Positions 3,334 through 34,269 of a stretch of DNA of 64,000 bases are shown here, one piece after another. The notes beneath the pieces were generated by a model. It did not search any database. It worked only from the letters and a program-made list of their open reading frames with translations, and was not told where the DNA came from. This DNA is from an uncultured Planctomycetota bacterium (lineage in GTDB: Bacteria; Planctomycetota; CAZGEP01), in the NCBI GenBank assembly GCA_964524955.1, contig CAZGEP010000004.1, forward strand, positions 3,627 through 67,626, given 5' to 3'. A program made the translations under genes and the position numbers. Each line of letters starts with the position of its first letter. The stretch's first letter is position 1.

Positions 3334-3465
3334 CGCCGCAAAGAGAAGACGAAAGTAGTGAGTAGAGCATGGAAGAATTGGTTGTTTTAAAAATAAACGA
3401 ATGCTTTCTGAAAAAACTCGCATTCGTTCTCTTTATTCTTAACCTTTACCAGCAGGAGCAGAAAA

Positions 3466-17600: not shown

Positions 17601-18983
17601 ATTTCTGGCTTCTCTGAGGATAACTCCATGCCCGCCCTTTAAAAAAATGGTATTGATCACGTATCGCTGGATGGAAGGACCTCCAACAGAAACGGTCTTG
17701 GTCAAGCGTTGTTCCGGACCGCCCAGTGATGCAAACAGGTCCCAGGACATACCCAGGCCGCAGGGCTCAAACCAGTCCAGAGCACTGACCAGCTTAGCAT
17801 AATCGTATCCACCGAATGCGGACGGGTACATGGTACCCAGGATGCCGGTACGAACGGTTGGCGCGGATACGTCCGCAGCCTGCGCGCACTGCTTAAGCAG
17901 TGCGGCAAATGAATCATCCATGAATTCCCGGTGATCGGACCACGCGGAATAATTCTGGGTTTCCCATTCCGGAAACTCGTCGTGCATCAGACGGCGTTCG
18001 GGAATCATGATGCCGGCAACAATCCGCGAGATACATTCTTTATACTTTGGATTGTTCCGTGCCCGGGTCTGATTGGTCGTTTCCGGAACAACATCTTCCC
18101 ATTTCTTGAATTCCGTATCCCACTGCTTGTTCAATGCACTCAGTTTTTTATACTTCTTTTTGCACCACTCACGAAAGGCAGTCAGGGCGGTACCGGAGAT
18201 GTCAAAGTCAAAGGGGTCAGCATAGAGTGTTGTGGACGGCATTTCATGCAGACTGAACGCTGCCTGTCCACCCTTTGCACATGCGGCCGCTCTTGACTTG
18301 GCATAGCCCACGCATTTTTTGATAAAGGCCGGATCGTTGAAGCTGGGTTTCCGTTTAAGCTTAACCCGCGAGCCGGTATAATTCCCTTTTCGGTGTGCAC
18401 TCATAAATCCCCCCCATTGATTGTCGGCAAAATTCGGCCCAAACGCAAGCCCGGCTGACCCGTGAAGGTAGGATTCGTTCTTAAAGAAACAGGACCGGTA
18501 GTGCAGGCCTTCTGCACCGCCAGCCCGGTGCCCCCTGTACAGCCAGACCTGAAAATCACTCCAGGGGTCATCTTCTGTCTTCACGCCAAAACTGCTGCGC
18601 GCAAGGAGCTTTCCGGATTTGTCGACCAGTAGGATACGATTCACCGATCCGCTGGTTTCCCCGAGGGTGAAGGTTACAGGTTTGGCAGCAGCGGGCGGGG
18701 TTTTTTTCTTGGGATCCGCTGGTTTTTCCTGTGGCGCGGTTTTGAAGACAAAGGATTTGAGTATTCGGTTGCAGTTGTCGGTCACCAGAATCCGGTTGAC
18801 TCCTTTTCGGATATGCGGAACCACAGTAATTTCTTCATCAAGGCTGAACGGAGCGGAACCGGATTTACTGCCCTTGATGCTTTGTATCGCCGGAGGCGGC
18901 CCTTTTCTCCTGCGAGCCTGGACATCAATTACGGAGGCAAAAACCAGCATACCTGCAATCAAAACCGTTAGCATTTTATTCAT
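14676..18983 (-). CDS. Very large secreted protein with a GH42-like (beta-galactosidase trimerisation-like) region and a C-terminal CBM9/DOMON-like domain
   Basis: Signal peptide. 'HWVKAGGTLITDG' GH42-like motif. C-terminal 'LDGVFDEPCW...' CBM9-like domain. Start set at the MNKML codon, which follows a 'ggagagag' RBS. Confidence 0.5.
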   Translation of the reverse strand: MNKMLTVLIAGMLVFASVIDVQARRRKGPPPAIQSIKGSKSGSAPFSLDEEITVVPHIRKGVNRILVTDNCNRILKSFVFKTAPQEKPADPKKKTPPAAAKPVTFTLGETSGSVNRILLVDKSGKLLARSSFGVKTEDDPWSDFQVWLYRGHRAGGAEGLHYRSCFFKNESYLHGSAGLAFGPNFADNQWGGFMSAHRKGNYTGSRVKLKRKPSFNDPAFIKKCVGYAKSRAAACAKGGQAAFSLHEMPSTTLYADPFDFDISGTALTAFREWCKKKYKKLSALNKQWDTEFKKWEDVVPETTNQTRARNNPKYKECISRIVAGIMIPERRLMHDEFPEWETQNYSAWSDHREFMDDSFAALLKQCAQAADVSAPTVRTGILGTMYPSAFGGYDYAKLVSALDWFEPCGLGMSWDLFASLGGPEQRLTKTVSVGGPSIQRYVINTIFLKGGHGVILREARNMWDRRKIRGTGMTYLRNTLKDLTRGLGKLRMIAEDAPHPIAIYHNQASQRMAWLTDSLMDGTAWPRRLTFHHQPRDSMVRAYTGISLALEDSGYQTRAVSGDQVRKQGLKDSDLKVIFTSRIEALSDEEADALTHWVKAGGTLITDGALGSMDPQCKRRQYGLLERIAGIDRKNFRLCDMDGGYFPFYQGLTRKKDGAKTKLLDGVKVEALLVHCPDLRAGKAEVFAQAGEAPVLSVRKFGKGQVICANVYWADYIRGRELGGARAALSVLARNLVKSAGLEPYYQVTVDAKDASAPQIEQYLFKDGKTAYAAFNVQARPLEYPHQSSRYHNNYKDVTGISPPKWTGPITANGRLNIYNIKQGDLIPVTVTFPEKAHVYDSRTGSYLGEKKTVSVKLDPMGFAWLAQLPYKVNNLQVSVKSADGDPGLLEYDASIAAAGGAPGRHVLHMSVTDPDGRICDFLSRNIVANAGKTQGKLRIPENGKKGTWTIQLRDTATGVIGKTEFTKTTDPLLAGKLPISFPVKKGRLFAQLQGASDVNRANGQCRVSVPAAVWREGVKDSAGKIRVQVNSPWKLQQNTFDLAAITAEQAGEFMITVSCKASDLEKTNLEVTMNVKTDDGKSLKKASKIEGKKLASRLKESAPVTIEFNYYHPDIQRVLIEDDKCVCTMPLRVQTSAARIPSGKIRLSANKEWTLEPAEIDLEQALLSANGQNTIRLVGPLKFKESPVVTVEVKTDNGFTLNHKRYLPVCRSEYTAKAPVLDGVFDEPCWKNAQKETHSFRSVGKVAPEKFPIHFRVCHDDKNVYIAAEIKGLDPRILRVNAPVQDGFEDAIWCDDNLQVFFDPTQGAGEVTYRMVMNYLGRKYSTAGEDLTKYGWPGWKVDWEMKGRKISDGYAVELVVPYSLLNTTVPKSGDVWAMNVVRMTTEPYHGWPDYYGSWADVGSSVNASHWEGVPGCRISSHLFGRLLFVGGKKK

Positions 18984-19020
18984 ATTCACTCTCTCCATTT
19001 TCTACCTCTTCTTGTTATTG

Positions 19021-20802
19021 TTAGGGTGCGTGTTTTAATATTTCTTTTTTCAGTGAGAAACCCTTGGGACGGGGGCCATAGTGCGGCAGCGGTCTGCCAC
19101 GCTCATACGCTCCCAGATCCGGCGCCTTGCCGGTAAAGCCGTCGTTGAAATTCGGAAGCCGAACACCTTTGTCCAGGGCGTCGGAGTTCTTGCCCGGCCG
19201 CAGGTCGAAGTCCTCGGGTTTGTATACTCTTCCAACATTCTTTGGCACGGGATCCTTCATCTCAAAACAGGTTTTGTTGTCAATCAGAATCACCGGATGC
19301 CTGTTATAGATGGATGATTTCTTTGAATTAATTTTGATATACGGTCTTCCGTCCTTACCGGGAGCACCTCCGAATCCGTCGTTCTGCATGTCTGCGAATT
19401 GATACCATCCGGACTGCGTCGCATATCCGGCTCTGGAACCGATAAAGAGGTTGTTCCGCGTGATCAGGTTATCTGTACGGTCCCGGGGATCCTGATGCAG
19501 GCCCAGGCCTTTGTTTACAAAGGTGTTGTGATAGATCACCGCCCCGGAGCTTCCGCTGTTAATACTGTATATCTTCAGGGGGGCATGCGAAGAATTGTAT
19601 GCCACGTTTCGAAAAATATAGGCCGGTCCGCCACAAATCGGCTGCGTGGTGTACCCGTGACAGGTATTGATCACGCGGTTGTCGTAATACCGTGTATTGG
19701 CCAGGGTGAAGTCGGCTTCGTATCCATCATCCTCACAGATGCTCGCATCGTTGTTATGGATATCTGACGCACTCAGAAAACCATAACGGCAACCGTGAAC
19801 CCCGTCTCCAATATTTTCAAACCGGTTATAGCAGATCACATGACCGGAACCGGTGATAAATGTGCCATACCCGCCGGTAATTCCTGTACGGGGCCAGACA
19901 CCGAATCCCCGGAAATAATTATCACTGATAAAATGGTGTTGCGAGGCGTAGAATCCACCGTTATGAGCTATAAACCCAACCTTAAAACCAAGAAACCGGC
20001 ACCTTCTCAGAACCCAGTTACTTCCTTTGTGTGCGCAGATCAGGAAATGCCGATTCTGAAAGGTCACATCCTCAAACCAGATATGACTGGTGGAAACAGC
20101 GCTGACCAGGCGCCCGCCGGTTTTCCGGCTCTTGCCGCCGTTAATGATCGTCTGTTTGGCATCCGTCCCCCTGAAGATAATGGGTTTGCCGGGTTCGCCG
20201 GATGTCCGGATAGTCAGTGTTCCGTTTACATACACGCCTTTGCCCAGCAGGTAGAGCTCTCCGGCATTGGCACGGCTTACTGCAGTCTGAAGACCGCGGA
20301 TCGGATCCTTCTTTGTTCCGGTCCCACCCGGTTTGCCGTCACCCAGTGGAACAACATGATAAATTTTCATTCCTTTGGGCTCCATGGGTTCTTTCCAGGT
20401 CTTCATGTTGAGCAGTTTTTCGGCCTTGCCACCGTCCGAATCGCTGAGCATAAGCTTGACCTCATACTCTGTGTCCGGAAGCAGATCGACAATACTGCCG
20501 ACAAAGAGCCAACCTTCCTTGACGTTATGCAGGGGCGTGTGATTTTTCGGACTCCTGTCCGGACGCCCGCGTACAAGCGGCATCCCTTCGCGCCACTTAT
20601 CTGCTCCTTTCTGCCTGAACTGTACATTCACCACCGCGTTCGCGTTCTTATCTCCGAAAATTTCCCAGTGCACCCCCAGACAGTGGAGTGTGGACGGATA
20701 TTCCAGCACCTTGCCGGGCCTGGATGAATTCTTCCACTCGGCGTTAACGTTTCCGACAACAACGAACATAAAACCAAAAATTACCAACAAAAATCTCATC
20801 AT
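19021..20802 (-). CDS. Secreted right-handed parallel beta-helix protein (pectate-lyase/polysaccharide-lyase-like) with an N-terminal Fn3-like domain
   Basis: Signal peptide, 'NNDA' motif and beta-helix repeat pattern. Paralog of 20807..22597. Confidence 0.5.
   Translation of the reverse strand: MMRFLLVIFGFMFVVVGNVNAEWKNSSRPGKVLEYPSTLHCLGVHWEIFGDKNANAVVNVQFRQKGADKWREGMPLVRGRPDRSPKNHTPLHNVKEGWLFVGSIVDLLPDTEYEVKLMLSDSDGGKAEKLLNMKTWKEPMEPKGMKIYHVVPLGDGKPGGTGTKKDPIRGLQTAVSRANAGELYLLGKGVYVNGTLTIRTSGEPGKPIIFRGTDAKQTIINGGKSRKTGGRLVSAVSTSHIWFEDVTFQNRHFLICAHKGSNWVLRRCRFLGFKVGFIAHNGGFYASQHHFISDNYFRGFGVWPRTGITGGYGTFITGSGHVICYNRFENIGDGVHGCRYGFLSASDIHNNDASICEDDGYEADFTLANTRYYDNRVINTCHGYTTQPICGGPAYIFRNVAYNSSHAPLKIYSINSGSSGAVIYHNTFVNKGLGLHQDPRDRTDNLITRNNLFIGSRAGYATQSGWYQFADMQNDGFGGAPGKDGRPYIKINSKKSSIYNRHPVILIDNKTCFEMKDPVPKNVGRVYKPEDFDLRPGKNSDALDKGVRLPNFNDGFTGKAPDLGAYERGRPLPHYGPRPKGFSLKKEILKHAP
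19040..19739. repeat. Copy A of a roughly 0.7-kb near-identical direct repeat (about 600 bp are 100% identical) shared by the two beta-helix genes
   Basis: 19141..19739 is identical to 20939..21537 (offset 1798 bp). Confidence 0.85.
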
Positions 20803-20806
20803 ATTC

Positions 20807-22597
20807 TTATTCCTTTGCCTGTGGCGCGTATTTCAGTATCTCTTTTTTCAGTGAAAAGCCCCTGGGCCTTGGGCCATAGTGCGGAAGCGGTCTGCCACGC
20901 TCATACGCTCCCAGATCCGGCGCCTTGCCGGTATAACCATCGTTGAAATTCGGAAGCCGAACACCTTTGTCCAGGGCGTCGGAGTTCTTGCCCGGCCGCA
21001 GGTCGAAGTCCTCGGGTTTGTATACTCTTCCAACATTCTTTGGCACGGGATCCTTCATCTCAAAACAGGTTTTGTTGTCAATCAGAATCACCGGATGCCT
21101 GTTATAGATGGATGATTTCTTTGAATTAATTTTGATATACGGTCTTCCGTCCTTACCGGGAGCACCTCCGAATCCGTCGTTCTGCATGTCTGCGAATTGA
21201 TACCATCCGGACTGCGTCGCATATCCGGCTCTGGAACCGATAAAGAGGTTGTTCCGCGTGATCAGGTTATCTGTACGGTCCCGGGGATCCTGATGCAGGC
21301 CCAGGCCTTTGTTTACAAAGGTGTTGTGATAGATCACCGCCCCGGAGCTTCCGCTGTTAATACTGTATATCTTCAGGGGGGCATGCGAAGAATTGTATGC
21401 CACGTTTCGAAAAATATAGGCCGGTCCGCCACAAATCGGCTGCGTGGTGTACCCGTGACAGGTATTGATCACGCGGTTGTCGTAATACCGTGTATTGGCC
21501 AGGGTGAAGTCGGCTTCGTATCCATCATCCTCACAGACAAAGGCATCATTATTATGAATATCCGAAGCACTCAGAAATCCCCATGCGGTACCATGAACCG
21601 CATCCCCGATATACTCAAACCGATTGTAGCAGATTATATGACCGGATCCGGTAATCGTGGCTCCGTAACCGCCGGTAATGCCGGTTCGCGGCCACACACC
21701 GTATCCGCGGAAATAATTGTCACTGATAAAATGGTGCTGCGATGCGTAAAAACCTCCGTTATGCGCAATAAAGGCGGTCCCGAAACTCACGAACCTGCAC
21801 CGTCTGAGCACCCAGTGACTGGCCTTGTGTGCGCAGATCAGGTACTGGCGATTCTGCAAGGTTACATCTTCAAACCAGATATGACTGGTGCAGACCGCGC
21901 TGACCAGCCGGCCGCCCGTCTTATGGCTCTTGCCACCGTTGAGGATGGCTTCACCGTCACCAGCTCCCCGAAAGATAATGGGTTTACCGGGCTCACCGGA
22001 TGTTCGGATAGTCAGTGTTCCGTTTACATACACCCCTTTATGAAGCAGGAAGAGATCGCCGGCGCCGGCCCGGTCCACAGCGGTCTGAAGACCGCGGATC
22101 GGGTCTTTCGCTGTGCCGGCTCCACCCGGCTTGCCGGTGCCCAACGGCACGACATGGTAAGTCTTCATGCCTTTGGGCTCCATGGGCTCTTTCCAGGTCC
22201 TCATTGTAAGCAGCTTGTCGGCTTTTCCGCCGTCCGGATCCCTGAGCATGAGTTTGACTTCATATTCTGTATCCGGAAGCAGGTCCACAACACTTCCTGC
22301 AAAAAGCCATCCATTCTTTACATTATGAAACGGTGTACGGTTGGCATGGCTCCGGTCCGGTTGACTGCGAAAAAGCGGCATCCCCTCGCGCCACTTCGCA
22401 GCCCCCCTCTGCCTGAACTGAACATTCACTGCCGCGTTTTTATTCTTATCTCCGATAATTTTCCAGTGCACCCCCAGACAGTGAAGTGTGGACGGGTACT
22501 CCAGCACCTCTCCAGGCTCAGAGGAATCCTTCCACTCGGCAGAGACAAGCGAAGAGCAGCAGAACACAACACATAAGATAAAGGATAGAATCCTCAT
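20807..22597 (-). CDS. Secreted right-handed parallel beta-helix protein, tandem paralog
   Basis: About 75% identical N-terminal half and essentially identical C-terminal half compared with the upstream gene. Confidence 0.5.
   Translation of the reverse strand: MRILSFILCVVFCCSSLVSAEWKDSSEPGEVLEYPSTLHCLGVHWKIIGDKNKNAAVNVQFRQRGAAKWREGMPLFRSQPDRSHANRTPFHNVKNGWLFAGSVVDLLPDTEYEVKLMLRDPDGGKADKLLTMRTWKEPMEPKGMKTYHVVPLGTGKPGGAGTAKDPIRGLQTAVDRAGAGDLFLLHKGVYVNGTLTIRTSGEPGKPIIFRGAGDGEAILNGGKSHKTGGRLVSAVCTSHIWFEDVTLQNRQYLICAHKASHWVLRRCRFVSFGTAFIAHNGGFYASQHHFISDNYFRGYGVWPRTGITGGYGATITGSGHIICYNRFEYIGDAVHGTAWGFLSASDIHNNDAFVCEDDGYEADFTLANTRYYDNRVINTCHGYTTQPICGGPAYIFRNVAYNSSHAPLKIYSINSGSSGAVIYHNTFVNKGLGLHQDPRDRTDNLITRNNLFIGSRAGYATQSGWYQFADMQNDGFGGAPGKDGRPYIKINSKKSSIYNRHPVILIDNKTCFEMKDPVPKNVGRVYKPEDFDLRPGKNSDALDKGVRLPNFNDGYTGKAPDLGAYERGRPLPHYGPRPRGFSLKKEILKYAPQAKE
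20838..21537. repeat. Copy B of the beta-helix gene repeat
   Basis: See copy A. Confidence 0.85.
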
Positions 22598-23458: not shown

Positions 23459-23622
23459 CCCAAGTAAGAATTCACTTGCATATAGGTATAATATAATACC
23501 GTTTTTCTGACTGTCAAGAGGGAAAACGGCATTTCCGTTTTACACTGGATATCCCTGATCGAATATATTATAATCCTCTGACTGCAGACATTGCATTCAA
23601 AACCTTTATTCGAGGATATGTA

Positions 23623-25098
23623 ATGACCGATAAACCCAACATCCTGCTGATCCACGCTGACCAGCACCGCTATGACTGTCTGGGAGCCTGCGGTAACACA
23701 GACATCAAAACACCCAATATTGACAGACTTGCGCAGGACAGCGTTGTCTTTGACAACAGTTTCTGCCCGCATCCAGTCTGCACCCCGTCGCGGTACTCTC
23801 TGCTGTGCGGCCAGTATATTCACCAGCACCTGGGCCTTACCAACACAAGTACACTTCCCCACGGCATGCCGACACTGCCCCGATCGCTCAAGGCAGAAGG
23901 GTACACGACTGCAGCGGTGGGCAAGATGCACTTTACGCCCACGTATCTGGATGTCGGGTTTGATGAAATGCAGCTGGCTGAACAGTGCGGCAAGGGCCGC
24001 TACGATGATGACTACCATCGCTGGCTGCAAGACCAGGGACTCTGCGACCGCCTGGATATGATCGACCAGGTCAATGAATTCCGGGAACGCGCCCCTGATG
24101 AATACTGGGAGAATTTCGGCGCATTCCAGTCAGACCTGGATGAAGCGCATCACTCCACAACCTGGATCGGTGACCGTGCCCTGGAAAAAATTGAATCTTG
24201 GGACAGCGGACCCAACTTTCTGATGGCAGGATTTATCAAGCCCCACCACCCCTTTGATCCGCCGGCACCATGGGATACCATGTACAATCCGGATGAACTG
24301 ACGCTTCTGCCCGGCTGGACCGAAGAACTGATTCAAGGCGATACCGGCGAATCCTTTTTTGCCTACAAAAACCTGACTGAACAATCCCTGCGCCGCGTCA
24401 TGGCGCTCTACTACGCATCCATCTCTCAGATCGACTTCCACGTTGGCCGGATGATCGACCGTCTCAAGGAAAAGGGCCTGTACGACAACACGGTGATCGT
24501 CTACACCAGCGACCACGGGGATTACATGGGATATCACCACCGCATTCTCAAAGGCTACAGAATGTTCGAACCGCTGGTGCGCGTCCCCCTTCTGATCAAG
24601 TATGCTGCGGACACGGTTCCGGCAGGCAGGGATGAACGGCTGGTGAACAACATTGACGTGGCCCCCACACTGCTTCACGCAGCACAGATCACACCGCCTG
24701 AAACCATGTCCGGCATGAACCTGACTCAAGAAAGCGATGGCCCGGATTACGTGTTCGCGGAAAAGGGCGATGAGTATATGGTCCGATCCCGGACACACAA
24801 ACTGCTGCTCAACCGCAACCCTGACAGGTCCATGTTCTTTGATCTGACGCGCGATCCGCTGGAAATGGAGAATCGCATTAACGACGATCAATACCAGACC
24901 GAGATTGCAGCACTCCGCGACCGCCTGTACGAATGGGCGCTCTTTGACAGCCGTGCAACCAATCACCTGGATCACAATGCTCCCCTGTGCCCATCAAAGA
25001 ATGTTTGTGACGGAGACACTGGACTCTATGAGCACTTCAAACCCATTATGCTGAAAAACGAAGACCAGCCCCTTGAACCGGAAACCGAGCGCAACTGA
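23623..25098 (+). CDS. Sulfatase with canonical C-T-P-S-R motif, no signal peptide
   Basis: 'CTPSRYSLLCGQ' and 'GKMHF'. RBS 'gaggat'. Confidence 0.85.
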   Translation: MTDKPNILLIHADQHRYDCLGACGNTDIKTPNIDRLAQDSVVFDNSFCPHPVCTPSRYSLLCGQYIHQHLGLTNTSTLPHGMPTLPRSLKAEGYTTAAVGKMHFTPTYLDVGFDEMQLAEQCGKGRYDDDYHRWLQDQGLCDRLDMIDQVNEFRERAPDEYWENFGAFQSDLDEAHHSTTWIGDRALEKIESWDSGPNFLMAGFIKPHHPFDPPAPWDTMYNPDELTLLPGWTEELIQGDTGESFFAYKNLTEQSLRRVMALYYASISQIDFHVGRMIDRLKEKGLYDNTVIVYTSDHGDYMGYHHRILKGYRMFEPLVRVPLLIKYAADTVPAGRDERLVNNIDVAPTLLHAAQITPPETMSGMNLTQESDGPDYVFAEKGDEYMVRSRTHKLLLNRNPDRSMFFDLTRDPLEMENRINDDQYQTEIAALRDRLYEWALFDSRATNHLDHNAPLCPSKNVCDGDTGLYEHFKPIMLKNEDQPLEPETERN

Positions 25099-25103
25099 AT
25101 AAA

Positions 25104-26717
25104 ATGAACCCTGCAACAACCCACACCATCACACCAACTGTACCCGCGCAGAAAAGCGACCGCGTCAGTCTCTGGACAGCGGTTCGGGATTTTGTTTCTT
25201 CCAGCGACCTTGTATCACCGCTGTCCAGAGAAGACCTCGAAACCATGGCTGAAGAACTCTGCACTCAGACTGGAACCGAAACACAGTATCGTGACTTCCT
25301 GATGGTGCTGCTTAATACGGAATCCTGGAAAAAAACGGTATCCATGGTTCCCTATGAACGCCGCATGCTGCTCCTGCCTCAATGCCTGCGCACCCGGTCC
25401 GACTGCCCGGCGGAAATGGATGACCTGGGTCTGCTCTGTGAAAACTGCGACCGATGTCCGCTGGGAAAAATCACGCAGCTTGCCGAAGATCTGGGGTATG
25501 TCACCCTGATTGCAGAAGGCACCACCGTGGTCACCCGGCTCTTTGAGCAGGGAAAGATCGACTGCGTGGTCGGCGCCAGCTGCATGGAAACCCTGGAAAA
25601 GACCTTTCCCCTCAGTGTACGGGAGGCAGTGCCCTCCCTGGCCGTCCCCCTGAACAGCCACGGCTGCGACAACACATCCGTGGACACAGAACAACTGATT
25701 GAAATGATCCGCCTGAGGAATCCGGACCAGACAAGAGAGCGCATCAACATCCCGTCCGTCAAAAATGAAGTACGCTCCTGGTTTGACGCCGATCAGATTG
25801 GCAGCATCCTTGAGAGCAGCCAATCTGAAACCAGCCGGATCGCCACAGACTGGGTGGCAGAAAGCGGAAAACGATGGCGCCCCATTGTTATGGCCTCTGC
25901 CTTTCAGGCGCTCTCAGAAACCACAGCACCCTTCTCAGCAACCATAAAGAAAGCAGCCACTGCAGTGGAATGCTTTCACAAGGCATCCCTGGTTCACGAT
26001 GACATTGAAGACAATGACACCCTGCGAAACGGGCATCAGACCCTGCACCGCAGACACGGAATCCCCATTGCACTGAACATCGGCGATTATCTGATCGGCG
26101 AAGGCTACCGCTTGATCTCCAGTCTGGACCTGGACAGCCAACGCAAATGCCAGATGCTTTCCATTGCCTCTCAATGTCATCACACGCTCTGTCTGGGACA
26201 GGGAGAAGAACTCGCTATGCTAAAGGCTGATCTTCCACCCACACCACATAAACTCCGAGAAATATTCGCCAACAAGACATCACCGGCATTTGAGACCGGG
26301 CTTCGGCTCGGAGCAGCCTGCGCAAATGCAGACAGCAAAACCCATCCGATACTCTCCGCCTACAGCAGCGCCATTGGCATTGCCTATCAGATCAATGATG
26401 ATCTCCACGATCTTAACACAGACACCATAGAAGCCAATCCTGCTGTACTCAAAACATCATTTCTCCTTGCCATGGCCTGGGAATCCGCTAAAGAGGCAGA
26501 GCGAAAGGATCTTGCTCAATTCTGGAACAACCCCAATGCAGACACAAATAAAGAAAGACTGCTCTGCATTCTTAATCAGCTGAATATCCGGGAACAGGCT
26601 TCTGATATTATTGAAACGTATCAGCGTACAGCTCTGGAATCACTCAGACCTCTACAGAATACAGATCTGAAAATCCTTCTCTGGCGCCTCAGTCACAGAA
26701 TTTTTGAGGATGAGTAG
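25104..26717 (+). CDS. Fusion protein: N-terminal Cys-rich domain of unknown function (DUF116-like?) plus a C-terminal trans-isoprenyl diphosphate synthase domain
   Basis: FARM 'DDIED' and SARM 'DDLHD' motifs in the C-terminal 270 aa. The N-terminal about 260 aa have a CxxCxxC cluster. Starts 6 nt after the sulfatase stop. Confidence 0.6.
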   Translation: MNPATTHTITPTVPAQKSDRVSLWTAVRDFVSSSDLVSPLSREDLETMAEELCTQTGTETQYRDFLMVLLNTESWKKTVSMVPYERRMLLLPQCLRTRSDCPAEMDDLGLLCENCDRCPLGKITQLAEDLGYVTLIAEGTTVVTRLFEQGKIDCVVGASCMETLEKTFPLSVREAVPSLAVPLNSHGCDNTSVDTEQLIEMIRLRNPDQTRERINIPSVKNEVRSWFDADQIGSILESSQSETSRIATDWVAESGKRWRPIVMASAFQALSETTAPFSATIKKAATAVECFHKASLVHDDIEDNDTLRNGHQTLHRRHGIPIALNIGDYLIGEGYRLISSLDLDSQRKCQMLSIASQCHHTLCLGQGEELAMLKADLPPTPHKLREIFANKTSPAFETGLRLGAACANADSKTHPILSAYSSAIGIAYQINDDLHDLNTDTIEANPAVLKTSFLLAMAWESAKEAERKDLAQFWNNPNADTNKERLLCILNQLNIREQASDIIETYQRTALESLRPLQNTDLKILLWRLSHRIFEDE

Positions 26718-26738
26718 ACCGAAAGACAAGGCGTTGCT

Positions 26739-28184
26739 ATGACATCCTGGTCAATGATTTTTGGAATCTTACTGATACTGACATTGCCGATATATGGTCT
26801 GTGGAGTATCGTTGGCGCACTCAGTAGTTTTCACCTTGAAAAATCGTATAAACTGGATATCATCAAAAAAACATGCAATTTTTTGAAGGCACTCAAGCCG
26901 TTGAAAACAACTCATACAATTATTACCGGTGACAGTCGCCAGATGAATCTGGTAGAGGATCAATCCGTTCAGCTTGTCATTACATCACCGCCCTATTGGC
27001 AACTCAAAGATTACGGAACTGAAAACCAGATCGGTTTTCATGAAGATTATGAAACGTATATCAACAATCTGAATATAGTCTGGAAAGAATGTTACCGTGT
27101 GCTGGAAAACGGCTGCCGTTTATGTATAAATATCGGTGATCAGTTTGCCAGAGCAGTTTATTACGGCAGATATAAAATCATTCCAATTCGTACGGAAATC
27201 ATCAAGTTTTGTGAAAGCATTGGATTTGATTACATGGGAGCCGTTATCTGGCAGAAACACACCACAACAAATACAACCGGTGGTGCCTCCTTAATGGGGA
27301 GCTACCCAACACCTCGAAACGGTATCGTATCTATTGATTATGAATTTATTCTCCTATTCAAGAAACTTGGAAAACCTTTAAGGGTCAAAAAAGAGGTCAA
27401 GAATGAGTCAAAGTTGACCAAGGAAGAATGGAAAGAATATTTTTCCGGACACTGGACATTCGGCGGCATACGGCAGAACGGCCACATTGCCATGTTTCCT
27501 GAAGAACTGCCCAAACGATTGATTAAAATGTTCGCTTTTGTCGGAGAAACGGTCCTAGATCCATTTATGGGAAGCGGAACCACAAGCCTTGCAGCCAGAA
27601 ATCTGAACAGGAATTCGATTGGGTATGAAGTCAACCCGGAATTCATTACAGTAGCCAAAGAAAAACTGAATATCGACCAGGGTGATTTTTTCGGCACAGA
27701 GTATCTCTTCAAGAACGACCATTTTAGTCTGAATGTCAACAAAGAGTTGTCTTCTTTGCCGTATCGTTTCAGAGATCCCCACCAACTGGACAAAAAGACT
27801 GACCCAAGAATGATGCAGTTCGGTTCAAAAATAAACAATTCTGCATCTGAAAGAGAAACCTATTATTCTGTAAAAGAGATCATCAGCCCGGAACTGATTA
27901 AATTAAGCAATGGAATTATCATACGCCTGATCGGTGTAAAAGAGAAACCAAATGTCAACGGAAAAGCAACACAATTCCTTAAAACTAAAACAAAGGGACA
28001 GAGGGTTTTCTTAAAATATGACACCCAGAAACACGATGAAGACAATCACTTGATGTGCTATTTGTATTTAAAAAATAAAACATTTATCAATGCCCATCTG
28101 ATAAAAACCGGCCTTGTAGAACCGGATTGTTCGATGAGCTTCAAATACAAAGATAAATTTATGCGCCTGGGAGTGGGAGAATAA
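26739..28184 (+). CDS. Beta-class DNA methyltransferase (N4-C or N6-A) fused to a C-terminal staphylococcal-nuclease (SNase)-like domain
   Basis: Motif IV 'TSPPY' precedes motif I 'DPFMGSGTT'. C-terminal 'IIRLIGV...GKATQFL...VFLKYD...NAHLIKTGLVEPD' is SNase-like. AT-rich. Confidence 0.7.
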   Translation: MTSWSMIFGILLILTLPIYGLWSIVGALSSFHLEKSYKLDIIKKTCNFLKALKPLKTTHTIITGDSRQMNLVEDQSVQLVITSPPYWQLKDYGTENQIGFHEDYETYINNLNIVWKECYRVLENGCRLCINIGDQFARAVYYGRYKIIPIRTEIIKFCESIGFDYMGAVIWQKHTTTNTTGGASLMGSYPTPRNGIVSIDYEFILLFKKLGKPLRVKKEVKNESKLTKEEWKEYFSGHWTFGGIRQNGHIAMFPEELPKRLIKMFAFVGETVLDPFMGSGTTSLAARNLNRNSIGYEVNPEFITVAKEKLNIDQGDFFGTEYLFKNDHFSLNVNKELSSLPYRFRDPHQLDKKTDPRMMQFGSKINNSASERETYYSVKEIISPELIKLSNGIIIRLIGVKEKPNVNGKATQFLKTKTKGQRVFLKYDTQKHDEDNHLMCYLYLKNKTFINAHLIKTGLVEPDCSMSFKYKDKFMRLGVGE

Positions 28185-28820
28185 ATGGCCAAGGAATGGA
28201 TATTAAACAGCGCAATGAACCGTTTCCAGCTGAATTTCAAACGAAATGTTGGCCCTACATCAGAAAGCATACGGGCGTGCGAGCCAAAGACCCTGGAAGA
28301 GTGGAAAGCGTATTATTTCCGGGAAGTTCGGAGCAAAGACCACATCATTGATCTTGGCAAGAAACTTTACATCAAGATTACGGAAGTCATTCAAGCCGAA
28401 GTCGAGCAAATAACAGAGCAAGACTGCATAGACTATATGCTGAAGATGGTCGTTGAGAGAACATTTGATGGATACATCACTGAAATCAAAACGATATACG
28501 GACAAATAGAAAAAGAACTGGGATGCAAGGTAAAACCTTCATCGGATGAATGGGACAGAAAGTTCAACGTGGATTTCTTTATTAAAGTAAACGACTATTA
28601 TCTTGGCCTTCAGATCAAACCGGTAAACGAGGGCATTCAGCTCTCACAAATATATAAAGAAAAAGATCTTCAGAAAACAAGCCATCAGAAATTCACTGAT
28701 CAATTCGGCGGTCAAGTCTTTTATATCTTTTCTACCAAAGTCAGTGGAAATAAAATTATTAAAAATCCGGAAGTTATTGACGAAATCCGAAACGAAATCA
28801 CCCGGCTTAACCATGCCTGA
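28185..28820 (+). CDS. Putative type II restriction endonuclease (PD-(D/E)xK-like), partner of the upstream methyltransferase
   Basis: The ATG abuts the methyltransferase stop (TAAATG). AT-rich. Candidate 'E-x-D...D-x12-Q-I-K' catalytic arrangement. No other family recognised. Confidence 0.4.
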   Translation: MAKEWILNSAMNRFQLNFKRNVGPTSESIRACEPKTLEEWKAYYFREVRSKDHIIDLGKKLYIKITEVIQAEVEQITEQDCIDYMLKMVVERTFDGYITEIKTIYGQIEKELGCKVKPSSDEWDRKFNVDFFIKVNDYYLGLQIKPVNEGIQLSQIYKEKDLQKTSHQKFTDQFGGQVFYIFSTKVSGNKIIKNPEVIDEIRNEITRLNHA

Positions 28821-29685
28821 TCTCTTTGCCCGAATGATTCAGACCGCTTCATATTCAACAGAGCAGCTTGAGCCGGATGCACGTGAAGACATCACCTCAT
28901 TCATCCTCAACTGCATGAATCCGGACGGCGGTTTTCAGGGGCGTTCTGAGGAAAGCGACCTCTATTACACCTGCTTTGCGCTCATGTCCCTTCATGCGCT
29001 TGGAAAAACAATGCCCGAAGACACAACCGACTGGCTCATCAGCCAGGCCGCGAAGCCGCCAACAGATCGGGTCCACCTCGCCTCACTGATCCTATGCCTT
29101 GAAATAACCGGACAGGCTCAGAAGGCAAACCTGCTGCGAAAAAAACTCCAGCCATCCTGTGCGGACATTCTACACTGCAAAATATCAGGCAGCAAAAACA
29201 CTGAAAACCTGTACAGCATATTCCTGTCCATGCTCTGTATGAAACCCCCGGAAGATACCGTACCGAACGCTCAAAGACTGACCCGGGAGCTTGAGACGTT
29301 TCAAGTCCGAAACAAAACCTATGCCAACGAACCCGGCAGCAGCCAGTGCAGTACGCCGGCCACAGCCGCGGCCCTGGCAATTCTTTTCGCACTCAACATT
29401 ACGCCGGATCCCCGGACAATCAACCACCTGATAACCATGCATGAGAAGACCGGTGGATTCAGGGCCGCGGAACTCACCCCACTTCCTGACCTGCTCTCCA
29501 CCGCCACAGCCCTCTTCTCGATCAGTCTCCACCAGAGCATACCGCAAGCTATCAAGAAGCCGTGCCTGACGTTTATCCAGGACTGCTGGCTGAAAAACGG
29601 GGGCTTCTGCGGCAGCCTTGTGGATGATATGCCGGACTGCGAGTATACCTTTTACGGACTGCTGGCGCCGGGATGCGTTGGTTAA
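28813..29685 (+). CDS. Prenyltransferase/squalene-oxidase-repeat (PFTB-like alpha-alpha toroid) protein, cytoplasmic
   Basis: Repeated 'GGF' and aromatic motifs. The start overlaps the REase stop codon (ATGCCTGA). Confidence 0.5.
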   Translation: MPDLFARMIQTASYSTEQLEPDAREDITSFILNCMNPDGGFQGRSEESDLYYTCFALMSLHALGKTMPEDTTDWLISQAAKPPTDRVHLASLILCLEITGQAQKANLLRKKLQPSCADILHCKISGSKNTENLYSIFLSMLCMKPPEDTVPNAQRLTRELETFQVRNKTYANEPGSSQCSTPATAAALAILFALNITPDPRTINHLITMHEKTGGFRAAELTPLPDLLSTATALFSISLHQSIPQAIKKPCLTFIQDCWLKNGGFCGSLVDDMPDCEYTFYGLLAPGCVG

Positions 29686-30552
29686 AGACAGTCGATGGTC
29701 AATGGTCTATGGCTAATTGCGCTGAAAACCTCCGAATTGACAGGATAAAGAATGACAAAGTATGCATCGCACGGTCGCCGCAGGCATGCAGTTGATCCGT
29801 CCGCTGACGGAAGACACAGGGGCACGGAGAAAAACAACAGCTAAAGATTTTCAACAACGAAATAGACGAAATAAACGAAAAAACTGCATTGAAAACAGAA
29901 TTATGGGAACGCTGAAGATGCAAGAGACGCTATCAAAAGATCAGCACTGCCACAGCCGGTCATGGCCCGGCGCGTCCGGGGCATCCAGGAGCAGCCGACA
30001 CCGATTACGTCCTTATCCGTATATCCTGTTTATCCTGTAAATCCTGTCCAATTCTCTTTCTTTTTGTTGTTCTGAACTAAGACAAAATAGTAGACGGGAT
30101 TGACGGGTCGGCGGAGCCTTGTTTTTGATCCGCCTAGGCGGAATTGACAGGATGAGAAAAGAACAGAACTCTCCTTGTTCTGCGATTTCAGACTGTCAAT
30201 AAAAAGATGAATCCGCTCATCAAGCGTTTTCTCCCGGTTCTGGCTGGAAAGCAAAATAAACTTACTCGCCCAGATTGCGTGAAACTTAATAGTAGACGGT
30301 TTTACCAGTTTTTTATCCTCTAGATACTGCTGAAATTCTTTCAGAACAGCCCTAATATATTCGTTTCTCCTTAATAGGCAAAGTAAATGCTATTAAAATA
30401 TAGTCATACTATCATACATTCCAATTCGAATATTTCAAAAAAATAATTTTTTATTTGACACGGTTCAGTGGTTTTATAAAATTTACCGTTGTCAGAAATC
30501 ATAACTGTAACCTATACACACTAAATTGTTCCCGTCGCGCTGCGCGCGACGG

Positions 30553-30709
30553 GAACGGCGAGTTGAGGGCTTCGCCCCTCGCCCGATTAGTTCCCTGCGC
30601 GCTGATTCGCGCGCCGAGAACAAATCGTTCGAGGGGTCCATTGGCCTATCAACTCCGGGCGCTGAAGCGCCCTCCGATGATAGGTCAACGGCCCCTCAAC
30701 TCGCCGTTC
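30553..30709. repeat. GC-rich, multi-hairpin palindromic element (MITE/REP-like) with about 17-bp terminal inverted repeats
   Basis: Left TIR 'gaacggcgagttgaggg' and right TIR 'ccctcaactcgccgttc'. Internal hairpins include 'gagggcttcgcccctc', 'gcgcgctgattcgcgcgc' and 'gggcgctgaagcgccc'. Confidence 0.5.
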
Positions 30710-30720
30710 GAAGCAAGAGA

Positions 30721-30942
30721 ATGAAGAAACTGAATCGCGAAGAATTGATCATCCTTGTTCAACGCATCATGGATGTCGATGGCACAGAAGAAGAGATCGA
30801 CCAGATGATGGACACATTGGAGGCCAACGTGATCCACCCGGAAGTCTCCGATCTGATATTCTACTCAAAGAAGGAAGACCCGGCCGCAGAGGAGATCGTG
30901 GACGAAGCACTGGCTTACAAGCCCATCATTCTTGGGCCGTGA
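30721..30942 (+). CDS. Colicin/pyocin DNase immunity protein (Im7/Im9 family)-like small protein
   Basis: 73 aa. '...HPEVSDLIFYSKKEDP..EEIV' parallels Im9 '...[23 protein letters not shown]'. Confidence 0.55.
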   Translation: MKKLNREELIILVQRIMDVDGTEEEIDQMMDTLEANVIHPEVSDLIFYSKKEDPAAEEIVDEALAYKPIILGP

Positions 30943-31112: not shown

Positions 31113-32066
31113 ATGAAAGACTTGGCGAAAACCATACAAAACGCCTGTTCTGGCGACCTATACTCATTCGGCAGACTTGTCACCTATTATCAGGATATGG
31201 CATACGCTTATGCGTACTCGCTTTTAGGCGACTTCCATCTTGCCCAAGACGCTACCCAGGAAGCATTTATTGATTCCTATCGGCACCTATCATCGCTTCG
31301 GGTTCCCGAAGCGTTCCCCGGGTGGTTTCGACGGATTGTGCTCAAGCACTGTAATCGACTCACCAGAGGCAAGAGCATACAAACCCTGCCGCTTGACGTG
31401 GCGGGAGAGCAGGAGAGTCCCGAACTGCGGCCCGACGAGGTGCTGATTCGGAGTGAAATACGCTCTTCCGTTCTTGGCGCACTACGGGCGTTGTCTCAGG
31501 ATCAACGGACCGTAGCCTCACTTTACTATATCAACGGCTATTCCCAAGCCGAGGTAGCCGATTTTCTCGATGTGCCGAAAACAACTGTAAACAATCGCCT
31601 TCATGCCGCAAGGCGACGACTAAAGGAAAGGATGGTCACCATGGTGCAGCAAGAACTGACGAACAATGCTCTGCCAAAGGACGAGTTCTGCCACGTAGTG
31701 CTAGACAAGCTCTCGAAGCAACAGGCGGGCCTGATGGCCGGCAGTCCAGTCAACAAGTTTGCCGATCTTGTCATTACCCAAGCCCTGCACGACAAGTGCA
31801 AGCAGATGAGCCTATCCCTCGATGAGAATGGCACCGTCTGCCTGAGTGCACTGTATGATCGCGAATGGAAGGAATGGGCTCCGCCTCCAGCTCGCATCAT
31901 CCCTGCGCTTCTTTCGTTTTTGGCTGCCGCTGCAACATCGGATTCAAACTCCGACGAGTTGGCTGCAGAACTTCCTTTTGTTGCGTCAGATGGTCAGAAG
32001 TACATCGCAACCATCGAGGTGAAGAACATTACCGTCGGGATCACGTTGCCGGAAACGGGGCACTGA
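31113..32066 (+). CDS. ECF-type RNA polymerase sigma factor with a roughly 140-aa C-terminal extension
   Basis: Region 2 'DATQEAFIDSYR' and region 4 'LSQDQRTVASLYYINGYSQAEVADFLDVPKTTVNNRLHAARRRLKE'. Extra C-terminal domain of unknown fold. Confidence 0.7.
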   Translation: MKDLAKTIQNACSGDLYSFGRLVTYYQDMAYAYAYSLLGDFHLAQDATQEAFIDSYRHLSSLRVPEAFPGWFRRIVLKHCNRLTRGKSIQTLPLDVAGEQESPELRPDEVLIRSEIRSSVLGALRALSQDQRTVASLYYINGYSQAEVADFLDVPKTTVNNRLHAARRRLKERMVTMVQQELTNNALPKDEFCHVVLDKLSKQQAGLMAGSPVNKFADLVITQALHDKCKQMSLSLDENGTVCLSALYDREWKEWAPPPARIIPALLSFLAAAATSDSNSDELAAELPFVASDGQKYIATIEVKNITVGITLPETGH

Positions 32067-32166: not shown

Positions 32167-32757
32167 ATGAGCGTAGAATTACTTTCTGACTTTATCAGAG
32201 AAAAATATGAGGTGCATGAATGGAAACATGCGTGTGCCATATTGAAAGAGGATTTTACGAACGAATGGAATGATATTATATCTGTATTGGAAAGTTTTCG
32301 CCTAAAAAAGAGTTGGATTACAACTCCAGGAGGCAGGAAATCAAAGGTTTCTGCATATATTGATGGCTATTTATATGATAGGGATTGGGTTGAAAAAGAA
32401 TTTGAGACGAAAGTGACTGTTGATGATCATACAATGGACACACCAACTCATAAAATCGACTGTTTTAAAAATAGAGTGGCTCTTGAAATTGAGTGGAACA
32501 ACAAGGACCCTTTTTATGACCGAGACCTAAATAATTTCAGATTACTGTTTGATTTACGTGCAATTAGCGTTGGAGTGATCATTACACGCTGTGAAGATCT
32601 TCAAGATATTTTCAATGATTTGGGAAGAGGGGCATCTTATGGTGCATCTACAACGCATATGGGGAAATTACTCCCAAGGATTGAAGGTGGAAGTGGAGCT
32701 GGTTGTCCACTCGTTGTTTTTGGAATATCAAAATCACTTTATGTGGAGGATTGCTAA
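32167..32757 (+). CDS. Type II restriction endonuclease of the BglII/BamHI/BstYI family
   Basis: 'KIDCFKNRVALEIEWNNKDPFYDRDLNNFRLL' aligns with BglII 'DIDFGKRDTLVEVQFSNYPFLLNNTVRSELF' (D-x8-E-x-E/Q). RBS 'aaaggag'. AT-rich. Confidence 0.6.
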   Translation: MSVELLSDFIREKYEVHEWKHACAILKEDFTNEWNDIISVLESFRLKKSWITTPGGRKSKVSAYIDGYLYDRDWVEKEFETKVTVDDHTMDTPTHKIDCFKNRVALEIEWNNKDPFYDRDLNNFRLLFDLRAISVGVIITRCEDLQDIFNDLGRGASYGASTTHMGKLLPRIEGGSGAGCPLVVFGISKSLYVEDC

Positions 32758-32759
32758 TT

Positions 32760-33410
32760 ATGAACGCATCTGATGATCTGTTAAATTTTATTGGAAAAAG
32801 AAAATTTTCAACAATACTTGCTGACCCTCCATGGCAGTTTCAAAACAGGACGGGCAAAATGGCACCAGAGCATAAAAGGTTATCTCGGTACCCTACGATG
32901 AAATTACAAGAAATTAAAGATTTGCCGGTTGAAGCTATTGCGGAAGACCGAGCACATCTTTATTTGTGGGTTCCAAATGCACTTTTATCTGAAGGCATGC
33001 AAGTTATGGAGAATTGGGGATTTAAATATAAAACAAATCTAATATGGTACAAGATTAGAAAAGACGGCGGCCCCGATAGAAGAGGTGTTGGATTTTATTT
33101 TAGAAATGTGACTGAAATAATTCTTTTTGGTGTTCGGGGCAAGAATATCAGAACACTACAACCCGGAAGAAGTCAGGAAAACATTATATCATCAAGAAAA
33201 AGAGAACACAGTAGAAAACCAGATGAACAATATGATTTAATTGAATCTTGTAGTTGGGGACCTTTCTTAGAACTTTTTGGTAGAGGGCCAAGAGAAGGCT
33301 GGACAACTTGGGGCAATCAGGCAGAAGAATATACCCCTGATTGGGAAACATATTCAAACCATTCTAATGGGGATAGAATAATACCGTTTAAGAAAGTCAG
33401 GACAGGTTAA
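32760..33410 (+). CDS. MT-A70-family N6-adenine DNA methyltransferase
   Basis: 'ILADPPWQF' (DPPW) motif. RBS 'ggagga'. Starts 3 nt after the REase stop. Confidence 0.7.
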   Translation: MNASDDLLNFIGKRKFSTILADPPWQFQNRTGKMAPEHKRLSRYPTMKLQEIKDLPVEAIAEDRAHLYLWVPNALLSEGMQVMENWGFKYKTNLIWYKIRKDGGPDRRGVGFYFRNVTEIILFGVRGKNIRTLQPGRSQENIISSRKREHSRKPDEQYDLIESCSWGPFLELFGRGPREGWTTWGNQAEEYTPDWETYSNHSNGDRIIPFKKVRTG

Positions 33411-33423
33411 TCACTAGAATCGT

Positions 33424-34269
33424 ATGCATTATTATACGCAAAACTATAACAATGTGATGGATTTTGAGCGATCATGCATGGTTGCAGAAGAAGCTAATCC
33501 ACCATTCTATTATGATGTTTCTAATGGAATAAAACTATATAATGCAGACACTTTTTCATTTTTCAAAAATATACCAGATGGTTGTGTTGATCTAATATTT
33601 GCCGATCCTCCGTATTTCCTGTCTTCAGGAGGTATAACTTGCCATAGTGGTAAAATGGAAAATGTAAATAAGGGGGAATGGGATAAATCAAAACCAATTG
33701 AGGAAATTCACAATTATAACAAACAGTGGCTATCAGAGTGCAATCGTATTTTGAAAAAGCATGCTACTATTTGGGTTTGTGGAACATTTCACAATATTTT
33801 TTCTGTCGGATTCGCTTTGCAAGAATTAGATTTTAAAATATTAAACAATATAGTGTGGGAAAAGAAAGATCCTCCGCCGAATTTAACAAAAAAATACTTT
33901 GTCCATGCTTCTGAACATCTTCTTTGGGCATCAAAAACAAAATATTCTAAGCATATCTTTCATCAAGATGCTCTCAAAGAAGTTTCAAACGGGGAACCAA
34001 TGAAGTCTGTATGGAGGGATATATGGAAATTGCCATCAGTAGATCATTTAGAGAAAGTTTTTGGTAAACACCCAACACAAAAACCAGAAGAGGTTATTCG
34101 GAGAGCAGTGCTTGCATCAAGTAATATTGGGAGTCTGGTTTTCGATCCATTTTGTGGTAGTGGGACAACAGGAGTTGTCTGTAGAAGAATGAACAGAAGG
34201 TTTGTTGGCGTTGATAATAATTTAAAGTACTTGGATATCGCAAAAAAAAGAATAGCATCAGTAAAATGA
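33424..34269 (+). CDS. Beta-class DNA methyltransferase (N4-cytosine or N6-adenine; DPPY)
   Basis: Motif IV 'FADPPY' precedes motif I 'DPFCGSGTTG'. Confidence 0.7.
   Translation: MHYYTQNYNNVMDFERSCMVAEEANPPFYYDVSNGIKLYNADTFSFFKNIPDGCVDLIFADPPYFLSSGGITCHSGKMENVNKGEWDKSKPIEEIHNYNKQWLSECNRILKKHATIWVCGTFHNIFSVGFALQELDFKILNNIVWEKKDPPPNLTKKYFVHASEHLLWASKTKYSKHIFHQDALKEVSNGEPMKSVWRDIWKLPSVDHLEKVFGKHPTQKPEEVIRRAVLASSNIGSLVFDPFCGSGTTGVVCRRMNRRFVGVDNNLKYLDIAKKRIASVK

Follow-up and report, generated by a model that had tools for sequence, protein, structure and literature searches.

A conserved gene pair encoding a DUF116–polyprenyl synthase fusion and a small toroid protein: a probable isoprenoid module, reduced and interrupted in an uncultured Planctomycetota bacterium

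We analyzed a stretch of 64,000 nucleotides (nt) from an uncultured Planctomycetota bacterium (contig CAZGEP010000004.1, positions 3,627 to 67,626), here called the window. It encodes two proteins that we named FUS, a fusion of a DUF116 domain and a polyprenyl synthase (25104–26717), and TOR, an alpha/alpha-toroid protein (28813–29685). The genes of these two proteins are linked across many phyla and probably form the invariant, translationally coupled core of a module. According to the explanation that we favor and consider probable, though well short of certain, the window carries a reduced and interrupted copy of a widespread bacterial FUS–TOR isoprenoid module, whose mechanism would combine an Fe–S-type synthase with a toroid protein, the sulfatase gene preceding FUS being incidental. 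A map of the open reading frames (ORFs) of the window, scanned with Pfam and NCBIfam, and with PADLOC for the restriction–modification (R-M) genes, gave the following features:

23623–25098, + strand: sulfatase of 491 amino acids (aa), Cys-type, without signal peptide, CTPSR motif (PF00884, E = 3.7e-51)
25104–26717, + strand: FUS, 537 aa, DUF116 plus trans-polyprenyl diphosphate synthase (Pfam and NCBIfam scans)
25251–25709, + strand: DUF116 domain of FUS, aa 50–202 (PF01976, E = 2.1e-31, 109 bits)
25437–25457, + strand: CxxCxxC of the DUF116 domain (Cys 112, 115, and 118)
25833–26543, + strand: polyprenyl synthase domain of FUS, aa 244–480 (PF00348, E = 1.6e-40, 139.4 bits)
25998–26012, + strand: first Asp-rich motif DDIED, aa 299–303 (from the translation)
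26397–26411, + strand: second Asp-rich motif DDLHD, aa 432–436 (from the translation)
26739–26822, + strand: remnant of a native small membrane-protein gene, first ~27 codons, GILLILTLPIYGLWSIV (DNA and protein similarity to the start of an ORF of the related locus L081)
26823–28184, + strand: type II DNA methyltransferase with an SNase-like C-terminal region (PF01555, E = 2e-43; PADLOC MTase_II PDLC03259, 574 bits)
28185–28820, + strand: MjaI-type type II restriction endonuclease (PF09568, E = 2e-48; PADLOC REase_II, E = 3e-25)
28813–29685, + strand: TOR, 290 aa, cytoplasmic single-barrel alpha/alpha toroid (PF00432, 49.3 bits for a cutoff of 26.5)

The fusion protein and its toroid partner

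Both halves of FUS were recognized by Pfam profiles. The DUF116 profile matched the N-terminal half over its full length (positions 4–155 of 155, 109 bits for a threshold of 25), as an earlier sequence-only reading of this DNA had guessed, and this half matched no housekeeping family. The C-terminal half, taken by the same reading for a trans-isoprenyl diphosphate synthase (IPPS) with the motifs DDIED and DDLHD, matched PF00348 with 139.4 bits (gathering threshold 27), and both motifs are present in the translation. The invariant columns of the family were read from two alignments, one with 22 members and one with 71. The classical synthase motifs GKRWRP, ECFHKASLVHDDIED, R308, KT, and GxxYQxxDDxxD are invariant or nearly so, as are the two Asp-rich motifs, and the residues binding isopentenyl diphosphate (IPP) and diphosphate, namely G255-K-R-W-R-P260, R308, K391-T392, and Q429, are invariant. 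This conservation of the classical motifs makes it very probable that the synthase domain is an active chain-elongating enzyme. The assignment of FUS to a named IPPS equivalog was rejected: the NCBIfam IPPS equivalog and exception models cover geranylgeranyl diphosphate (GGPP), farnesyl diphosphate, hexa-, hepta-, and octaprenyl, and solanesyl synthases as well as the encapsulin cargo prenyltransferase, and in all 16 matches FUS remained below the cutoff, with a best score of 119.8 bits for a cutoff of 450. The best relative of the synthase domain in the PDB is the GGPP synthase of Pyrococcus horikoshii (1wy0, E = 1.5e-24), whose Asp-rich motifs and IPP-binding residues align with those of FUS. 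The two proteins differ by the additional 240-aa Cys-rich N-terminal domain of FUS and by the residue at position −5 before the first Asp-rich motif, a chain-limiting Tyr in 1wy0 and an invariant Ala in FUS, where a Phe is found at −8. As mutagenesis of other IPPS subfamilies has established, the residue at −5 limits the chain length. By analogy, the small Ala suggests that the product of FUS would be C20 or longer.

Seven Cys residues of the DUF116 domain are invariant among 71 sequences: C94, C101, C112-x2-C115-x2-C118, C160, and C188. They probably form an Fe–S or other metal site. The AlphaFold2 model of the domain, which the sequence-only reading had recommended making, has a flavodoxin/Rossmann-like predicted fold, and no solved relative was found. 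Three predicted amphipathic helices precede it. No hydrophobic stretch was detected in aa 1–90, and the N-terminal pair of transmembrane helices of stand-alone archaeal DUF116 proteins is thus not present in FUS, which has a soluble three-helix segment instead. DUF116 (arCOG02078) was described as a Cys-rich, probably flavodoxin-like, metal-binding domain, with a predicted role in electron transfer, by Makarova et al. (2015; PMC5898192), who mention a DUF116–polyprenyl synthetase fusion, Psta_0175, in Pirellula staleyi. Fusions of the Psta_0175 type (arCOG02078/COG1852) share with FUS the architecture, the CxxCxxC motif with extra Cys, and the flavodoxin-like predicted fold. The toroid partner and the larger cluster described below were not reported in that study. 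Apart from this genomics note, our search of the literature for DUF116, PF01976, or COG1852 returned one figure legend, which places a stand-alone DUF116 gene of a Bipolaricaulota isolate beside genes for IspH, a squalene-hopene cyclase (SHC), HpnH, and a polyprenyl synthetase. As far as this legend goes, it is an independent hint tying DUF116 to terpenoid metabolism.

The fusion is widespread. We found 7127 homologs of FUS in databases, with an identical two-domain architecture in all matches listed; they belong to Kiritimatiellae, Verrucomicrobiota, Planctomycetota, Acidobacteriota, and other groups, and share 42–47% identity with FUS. More than 594 GTDB species representatives gave a match. 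Similarly, a search for DUF116 in a library clustered at 50% identity returned 769 representatives at E ≤ 1e-3, and most of the best 150 are of fusion length. FUS is under purifying selection, with a ratio of nonsynonymous to synonymous substitution rates (dN/dS) of 0.14 in the comparison of the window with its orthologue in L081, the closest relative among the loci analyzed.

The prediction that 28813–29685 encodes a protein with prenyltransferase/squalene-oxidase repeats was borne out by a PF00432 match above cutoff, and 2710 homologs of TOR were found. Its start codon is the ATG at 28813 and not the GTG at 28744, because homologs align from ~28828 onward. The AlphaFold2 model is a single alpha/alpha barrel of 13 helices with a mean confidence (pLDDT) of 92. 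By profile and by Foldseek, the nearest proteins are the beta subunits of Rab geranylgeranyltransferase (RabGGTase), geranylgeranyltransferase III (GGTase-III), and farnesyltransferase (FTase), together with class II terpene cyclases, including MstE and drimenyl diphosphate synthase, with template-modeling (TM) scores of 0.4–0.6. Residues D49, D85, D226, D275, and E277 and many aromatic residues are invariant in TOR, and H88 and C276 are nearly so; the charged conserved residues lie at the N-termini of helices, the usual location of the active site in the toroid fold. In the best profile–profile alignment (hhalign, probability 85%), the invariant PDLLSTA of TOR is aligned to PDADDTA in a family of SHC-like cyclases encoded in its neighborhood. 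Because PDLLSTA occupies the position of the DxDD motif in this alignment, the general-acid Asp would be absent from TOR. D275-C276-E277 and H88 are conserved, and a canonical Zn triad D-x-C ... H is not assignable, the register of the repeats being ambiguous. Like FUS, TOR is under purifying selection (dN/dS of 0.21 in the same comparison with L081). From its sequence and model, we favor a role as a prenyl-binding protein with its own chemistry or with a hand-off function, and because of the tight linkage of the two genes we suggest that TOR works in a complex with FUS.

Gene order around FUS in relatives

We examined 80 loci around homologs of FUS, drawn from species-representative genomes. 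Neighbors were scored by tblastn with the proteins of the window and then with hidden Markov models (HMMs) built from de novo clusters of the flanking ORFs. The number of informative loci differs for each neighbor: 68 (HMM) or 72 (tblastn) for TOR, 64 for the cyclase, 62 for the radical S-adenosylmethionine (SAM) and 4Fe–4S ferredoxin-like (Fer4) proteins, and 53 for the sulfatase and for the CobW-type and GcvH-like proteins. In 48 of the 68 loci scored by HMM and in 50 of the 72 scored by tblastn, the gene immediately following FUS on its strand is TOR, most often after a spacer of ~14–20 nt (an approximate value taken from tblastn coordinates). The linkage is reciprocal: in three of three TOR-centered look-ups on long contigs FUS was immediately upstream, and in two of them a cyclase gene was downstream. 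The sequence-only reading had proposed a terpenoid/isoprenoid operon made of the sulfatase, the fusion, and the toroid protein. Its pairing of the synthase with the toroid protein is conserved across relatives; its inclusion of the sulfatase is not, since a co-directional sulfatase gene precedes FUS in 1 of the 53 loci having at least 5 kb of sequence upstream of FUS.

In most relatives the pair belongs to a larger cluster, with a usual order of ferredoxin-like genes, radical SAM, FUS, TOR, and SHC-like cyclase. Fer4 genes were found upstream of FUS in 49/62 loci, a radical-SAM or B12-radical-SAM gene in 43/62, and genes for a CobW-type GTPase and a GcvH-like protein in 21/53; a NifS-like gene is also frequent. 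Many relatives, among them the loci L024, L036, L069, and L073, have an extended and conserved string of upstream genes, encoding a NifS-like cysteine desulfurase, a GcvH-like protein, a CobW-type GTPase, and two ferredoxin-like proteins, one small and the other of ~290 aa. None of the NifS-like, GcvH-like, CobW-type, or ferredoxin-like neighbor proteins matched an NCBIfam equivalog. The composition of this string suggests a dedicated maturation of a cofactor or metal center.

Downstream of TOR, 34 of the 64 informative loci carry a gene for an SHC-like cyclase of 600–650 aa with SQHop_cyclase_N and SQHop_cyclase_C domains and an intact DxDD motif (PDADDTA), and this gene was never found without TOR. 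These proteins were rejected as hopene cyclases (105 bits for a cutoff of 431), as were the neighboring radical-SAM proteins as HpnH (43 bits for a cutoff of 225). In two papers, an "SHC-like" clade of the Planctomycetes–Verrucomicrobia–Chlamydiae (PVC) group and Acidobacteria is listed as functionally unknown (PMC7306690; PMC12324236), and Santana-Molina et al. (2020; PMC7306690) conclude from genomic context that it probably uses a precursor other than squalene. From their length, their retained catalytic motif, and their taxonomic distribution, we infer that the neighbor cyclases belong to this clade; its PVC and Acidobacteriota taxa, as given there, overlap with those of the FUS–TOR–cyclase loci. 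The window itself has no such cyclase gene in its 64 kb.

No ferredoxin, radical-SAM, CobW, GcvH-like, or SHC-like gene was detected within the window, so that FUS is adjacent to none of the accessory genes of the full cluster; the order of the FUS–TOR pair is nevertheless retained despite a 2.1-kb insert. The same minimal state was found in L081, whose FUS, TOR, and sulfatase are 77%, 71%, and 87% identical to those of the window, in L008, a locus from a metagenome-assembled genome of Victivallaceae, where the pair stands alone between genes of the opposite strand, and probably in L009. In a rough neighbor-joining tree, without support values, the minimal loci group with full-cluster loci, and from this grouping the minimal form looks derived.

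A restriction–modification cassette between FUS and TOR

By calling the toroid gene the next host gene, the sequence-only reading had implied a non-host insert at 26739–28820. The type II methyltransferase and MjaI-type endonuclease genes found there agree with this. Homology between the window and L081 ends at ~26822 and resumes at ~28804–28808. The methyltransferase ORF opens with 27 codons, GILLILTLPIYGLWSIV, that match the beginning of a 199-aa ORF located between FUS and TOR in L081 (9399–9998), whereas the match to the methyltransferase family spans aa 57–476 and therefore begins at residue 57 of the ORF, at about nt 26907. The cassette has a GC content of 39.5%, compared with 53–55% in its flanks, and the 3′ end of the endonuclease ORF (stop codon at 28820) overlaps the start of TOR (ATG at 28813). 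From the breakpoints of homology, the host-derived 5′ codons, and the low GC content, the R-M cassette is a horizontally acquired one, which has replaced most of a small native gene and left FUS and TOR intact. The endonuclease and the methyltransferase match the families of MjaI-type systems, for which the target here is predicted to be CTAG; the methyltransferase ORF departs from them by its chimeric, host-derived 5′ end. The sequence CTAG occurs at 10 sites in the 64 kb, for 28.5 expected under an order-2 Markov model and 249 expected from base composition, and one of these sites lies inside the cassette, at 27555.

The product of the 199-aa ORF of L081 is rich in Cys and has a hydrophobic helix at its N-terminus. 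Neither Pfam nor NCBIfam nor PADLOC gave a match for this ORF, which is absent from the other loci examined. Two interpretations of this ORF were rejected: it shows no similarity to the MjaI endonuclease of which it might have been a remnant, and, being lineage-specific, it is not a conserved third component, other loci carrying toxin–antitoxin-like ORFs or a major facilitator superfamily (MFS) gene at this place. In several Verrucomicrobiota relatives, a Doc/Fic-like toxin gene and a small antitoxin-like ORF are found at the FUS–TOR junction (L006, at 9882; L011, at 9674/9911; L016, at 2391/2509; L029, at 9678/9893), and in L045 an MFS transporter gene is located there (at 9583). Small selfish or accessory modules have repeatedly landed at the FUS–TOR junction.

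After another 2.5 kb or so, a second R-M island (32167–34269) encodes a BglII-type endonuclease together with two methyltransferases, MT-A70 and N6_N4. The island occupies the stretch of lowest GC content in the window (~37%) and immediately precedes two further sulfatase genes. Between TOR and this island, the gap before an extracytoplasmic function (ECF) sigma-factor gene (31113–32066) contains a GC-rich hairpin with a perfect 13-bp stem (30528–30556) and a 17-nt inverted repeat (30553–30569 and 30693–30709). A scan of 22–32 kb of the window with Rfam gave no match, the hairpin and inverted-repeat region (30528–30709) included. An ORF overlapping this region (30526–30942) has a weak match to colicin/pyocin immunity proteins.

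The sulfatase, competing explanations, and a proposed mechanism

The sequence-only reading correctly described the product of 23623–25098 as a cytoplasmic sulfatase; it has no signal peptide. Its proposal of a sulfo-lipid did not survive. If the sulfatase, the fusion, and the toroid protein formed one functional operon making or remodeling a sulfated isoprenoid lipid, the three genes would be expected together in relatives, and we regard this explanation as highly unlikely. The gene is on the same strand as FUS and is separated from it by 5 nt (25099–25103), not 6 nt as first stated; a promoter-like site was found upstream of the sulfatase only (23546–23574), no strong + strand terminator was found before 29685, and a sulfatase gene also lies upstream in L081 and L009. 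Co-transcription of the sulfatase and FUS is plausible from the short spacing and the lack of an obvious terminator. However, as a member of the module the sulfatase was rejected by the tblastn and HMM scoring of the 80 loci: besides the single co-directional upstream case, a sulfatase gene was found anywhere in the locus in 6/80. In L009 the sulfatase directly adjoining FUS is only 30% identical to that of the window and is a different paralogue, in L081 a 761-aa PcRGLX-like gene lies between FUS and the orthologous sulfatase, and in L008 the pair is alone. The window contains six sulfatase genes, a density at which such an adjacency is expected at ~10% by itself, and no sulfotransferase gene. 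Sulfatases hydrolyze sulfate esters and do not build them. The adjacency is most likely due to chance or to a recent rearrangement, and the window gives no support to a link with sulfated lipids. From the rarity of the linkage, the separation in L081, and the glycan-type genes around it, the sulfatase belongs to a glycan-degradation background.

Beta-helix lyase-like, glycoside-hydrolase-like, and carbohydrate-binding proteins are encoded around the sulfatases of the window, and together these genes point to a sulfated-glycan-degrading lifestyle. Upstream of the sulfatase, two tandem paralogues of ~595 aa with weak Chondroitinase_B/NosD beta-helix matches are encoded on the − strand (19021–22597). 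A giant GH42-like/CBM9 protein is encoded at 14676–18998 and an MGH1-like hydrolase at 38419–40167. A second sulfatase–PFTB adjacency had been proposed at 608–4830. The ORF at 608–1699 (− strand), divergent from a sulfatase gene, does encode a protein with toroid-type repeats, and its only match, to SQHop_cyclase_C, is below threshold (24.9 bits for 26.1). This 363-aa protein has a signal peptide and is secreted, its gene is on the opposite strand, and it was rejected as a relative of TOR (hhalign probability 4.6%).

Other explanations concern the role of TOR or of FUS. That TOR is a protein or peptide prenyltransferase, attaching the product of FUS to a Cys of a target, is in our view unlikely, although its best matches are the beta subunits of RabGGTase, GGTase-III, and FTase (profile E = 3.4e-11, and Foldseek), the invariant D275 and E277 and the nearly invariant H88 and C276 are placed at the N-termini of helices like the Zn ligands of prenyltransferases, and L081 encodes a Cys-rich 199-aa protein between FUS and TOR. 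The TM-scores of these matches are only 0.4–0.6, no gene for a PPTA-repeat alpha subunit was seen among the annotated neighbors in L081, L083, and L085 or the scanned ORFs of the window, and no conserved candidate substrate gene was found, the 199-aa ORF being restricted to one lineage. The Asp/Cys/His Zn triad could not be placed in TOR: in repeat motifs read by eye against what we take to be the ligand numbering, Leu and Tyr occupy the positions expected for Cys and His. We think it quite unlikely that TOR is instead a monodomain class II terpene cyclase similar to MstE, the pair being then a complete pathway to a cyclic terpenoid. Foldseek gives TM-scores of 0.57–0.58 to MstE and matches to drimenyl diphosphate synthase, TOR adjoins a prenyl synthase, and invariant acidic residues cluster at the mouth of the barrel; yet D-L-L-S is found at the position aligned with DxDD, without the general-acid Asp, and the DxDD cyclase, where present, is always additional to TOR and never replaces it (34/34). 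Because of this co-occurrence, the role of TOR should differ from that of the cyclase. Finally, FUS might be a housekeeping medium- or long-chain prenyl diphosphate synthase, for instance for the side chain of menaquinone, with a regulatory DUF116 domain and an unrelated TOR. The family is widely distributed and subject to purifying selection, and small residues precede the first Asp-rich motif at −4 and −5, as is typical of long-chain synthases. We consider this explanation very unlikely given the scores of FUS far below all NCBIfam equivalog cutoffs, including those of octaprenyl, heptaprenyl, and solanesyl synthases, its close, reciprocal association with TOR and its frequent proximity to cyclase and radical-SAM genes, and the absence of quinone-pathway genes from the neighborhoods examined.

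In the isoprenoid module that we favor, the synthase domain would add IPP units to an allylic diphosphate until it has formed an all-trans prenyl diphosphate of at least C20, and an Fe–S cluster held by the CxxCxxC motif and the four other invariant Cys of the DUF116 domain would perform or gate a redox step on or near this product. TOR would then take the hydrophobic chain into its aromatic-lined barrel and transfer or process it by a chemistry other than DxDD protonation. In full clusters, the radical-SAM and ferredoxin proteins and the SHC-like cyclase would modify and cyclize the chain to a polycyclic non-squalene lipid. In the lineage of the window only FUS and TOR have stayed together, the R-M cassette having replaced the small gene between them and damaged neither. 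Several points weigh against this explanation. The chain length, the presence of an Fe–S cluster, and the activity of TOR are deduced rather than observed. The rule on Ala at −5, drawn from other IPPS subfamilies, may not be transferable to FUS, the Cys pattern of DUF116 could be Zn-binding or structural rather than Fe–S, and other registers of the TOR repeats than that of the best hhalign match are possible. TOR does not follow FUS in 20 of the 68 loci and about half of the loci have no nearby cyclase gene, and the module is therefore not rigid. The ferredoxin and radical-SAM partners are missing from the 64 kb, which either weakens the dependence of DUF116 on them or places their genes elsewhere in the genome, and the 5-nt spacing suggests co-transcription of FUS with the sulfatase in this genome.

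A more specific proposal, to which we give little credence, is that DUF116 is a new Fe–S enzyme domain acting on the allylic diphosphate, for example by a reductive removal or coupling similar to those of IspH/IspG, and yielding a regular head-to-tail polyprene. TOR would hold this product, and the SHC-like cyclase would convert it into non-hopanoid, non-sterol polycyclic lipids, a possible and long-sought biological source of orphan biomarkers of sediments such as tricyclic terpanes; the pair of the window, without cyclase, would deliver the linear intermediate or a derivative. We know of no producer or gene for tricyclohexaprenol, the postulated precursor of tricyclic terpanes, and we found no gene-level report in the literature on tricyclic-terpane biosynthesis.

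Known systems show parts of the proposed organization. In the sesquarterpene pathway of Bacillus (HepS/HepT, YtpB, SqhC), an SHC-family cyclase receives a regular chain, different from squalene, from a polyprenyl diphosphate synthase dedicated to this purpose. This is the logic that we propose for the full FUS–TOR cluster, but the Bacillus pathway, restricted to Bacillota, has no DUF116, small toroid, radical-SAM, or ferredoxin genes. The beta subunits of RabGGTase, GGTase-III, and FTase have in common with TOR a single alpha/alpha barrel and GGF...D.(Y/C)Y repeats. They are larger (330–440 aa, compared with 290 aa), and TOR has neither a nearby alpha-subunit gene nor a recognizable Zn triad and is paired with a prenyl synthase instead. 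Similarly, MstE from Scytonema (PDB 6sbb–6sbf) consists of a single toroid barrel, is about as large as TOR, and acts on a prenyl chain, and its TM-score to TOR is ~0.57, but the two proteins share only ~12% identity and TOR has no acid motif at the aligned position.

The fusion architecture was thus already noticed in 2015 and has thousands of homologs, and the locus described here adds a reduced and interrupted representative to this family. To our knowledge, there is no characterized precedent for the permanent fusion of a prenyl synthase with a probable Fe–S domain. The FUS–TOR pair is common in PVC, Acidobacteriota, and other environmental bacteria, and it is the constant core of a cluster whose cyclase is listed in the literature as functionally unknown. 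The window shows that the pair can persist under purifying selection without adjacent cyclase and redox genes and that its junction tolerates the insertion of a selfish module. Working out the function of FUS and TOR would establish a new branch of isoprenoid lipid chemistry in bacteria and might provide new biomarkers.

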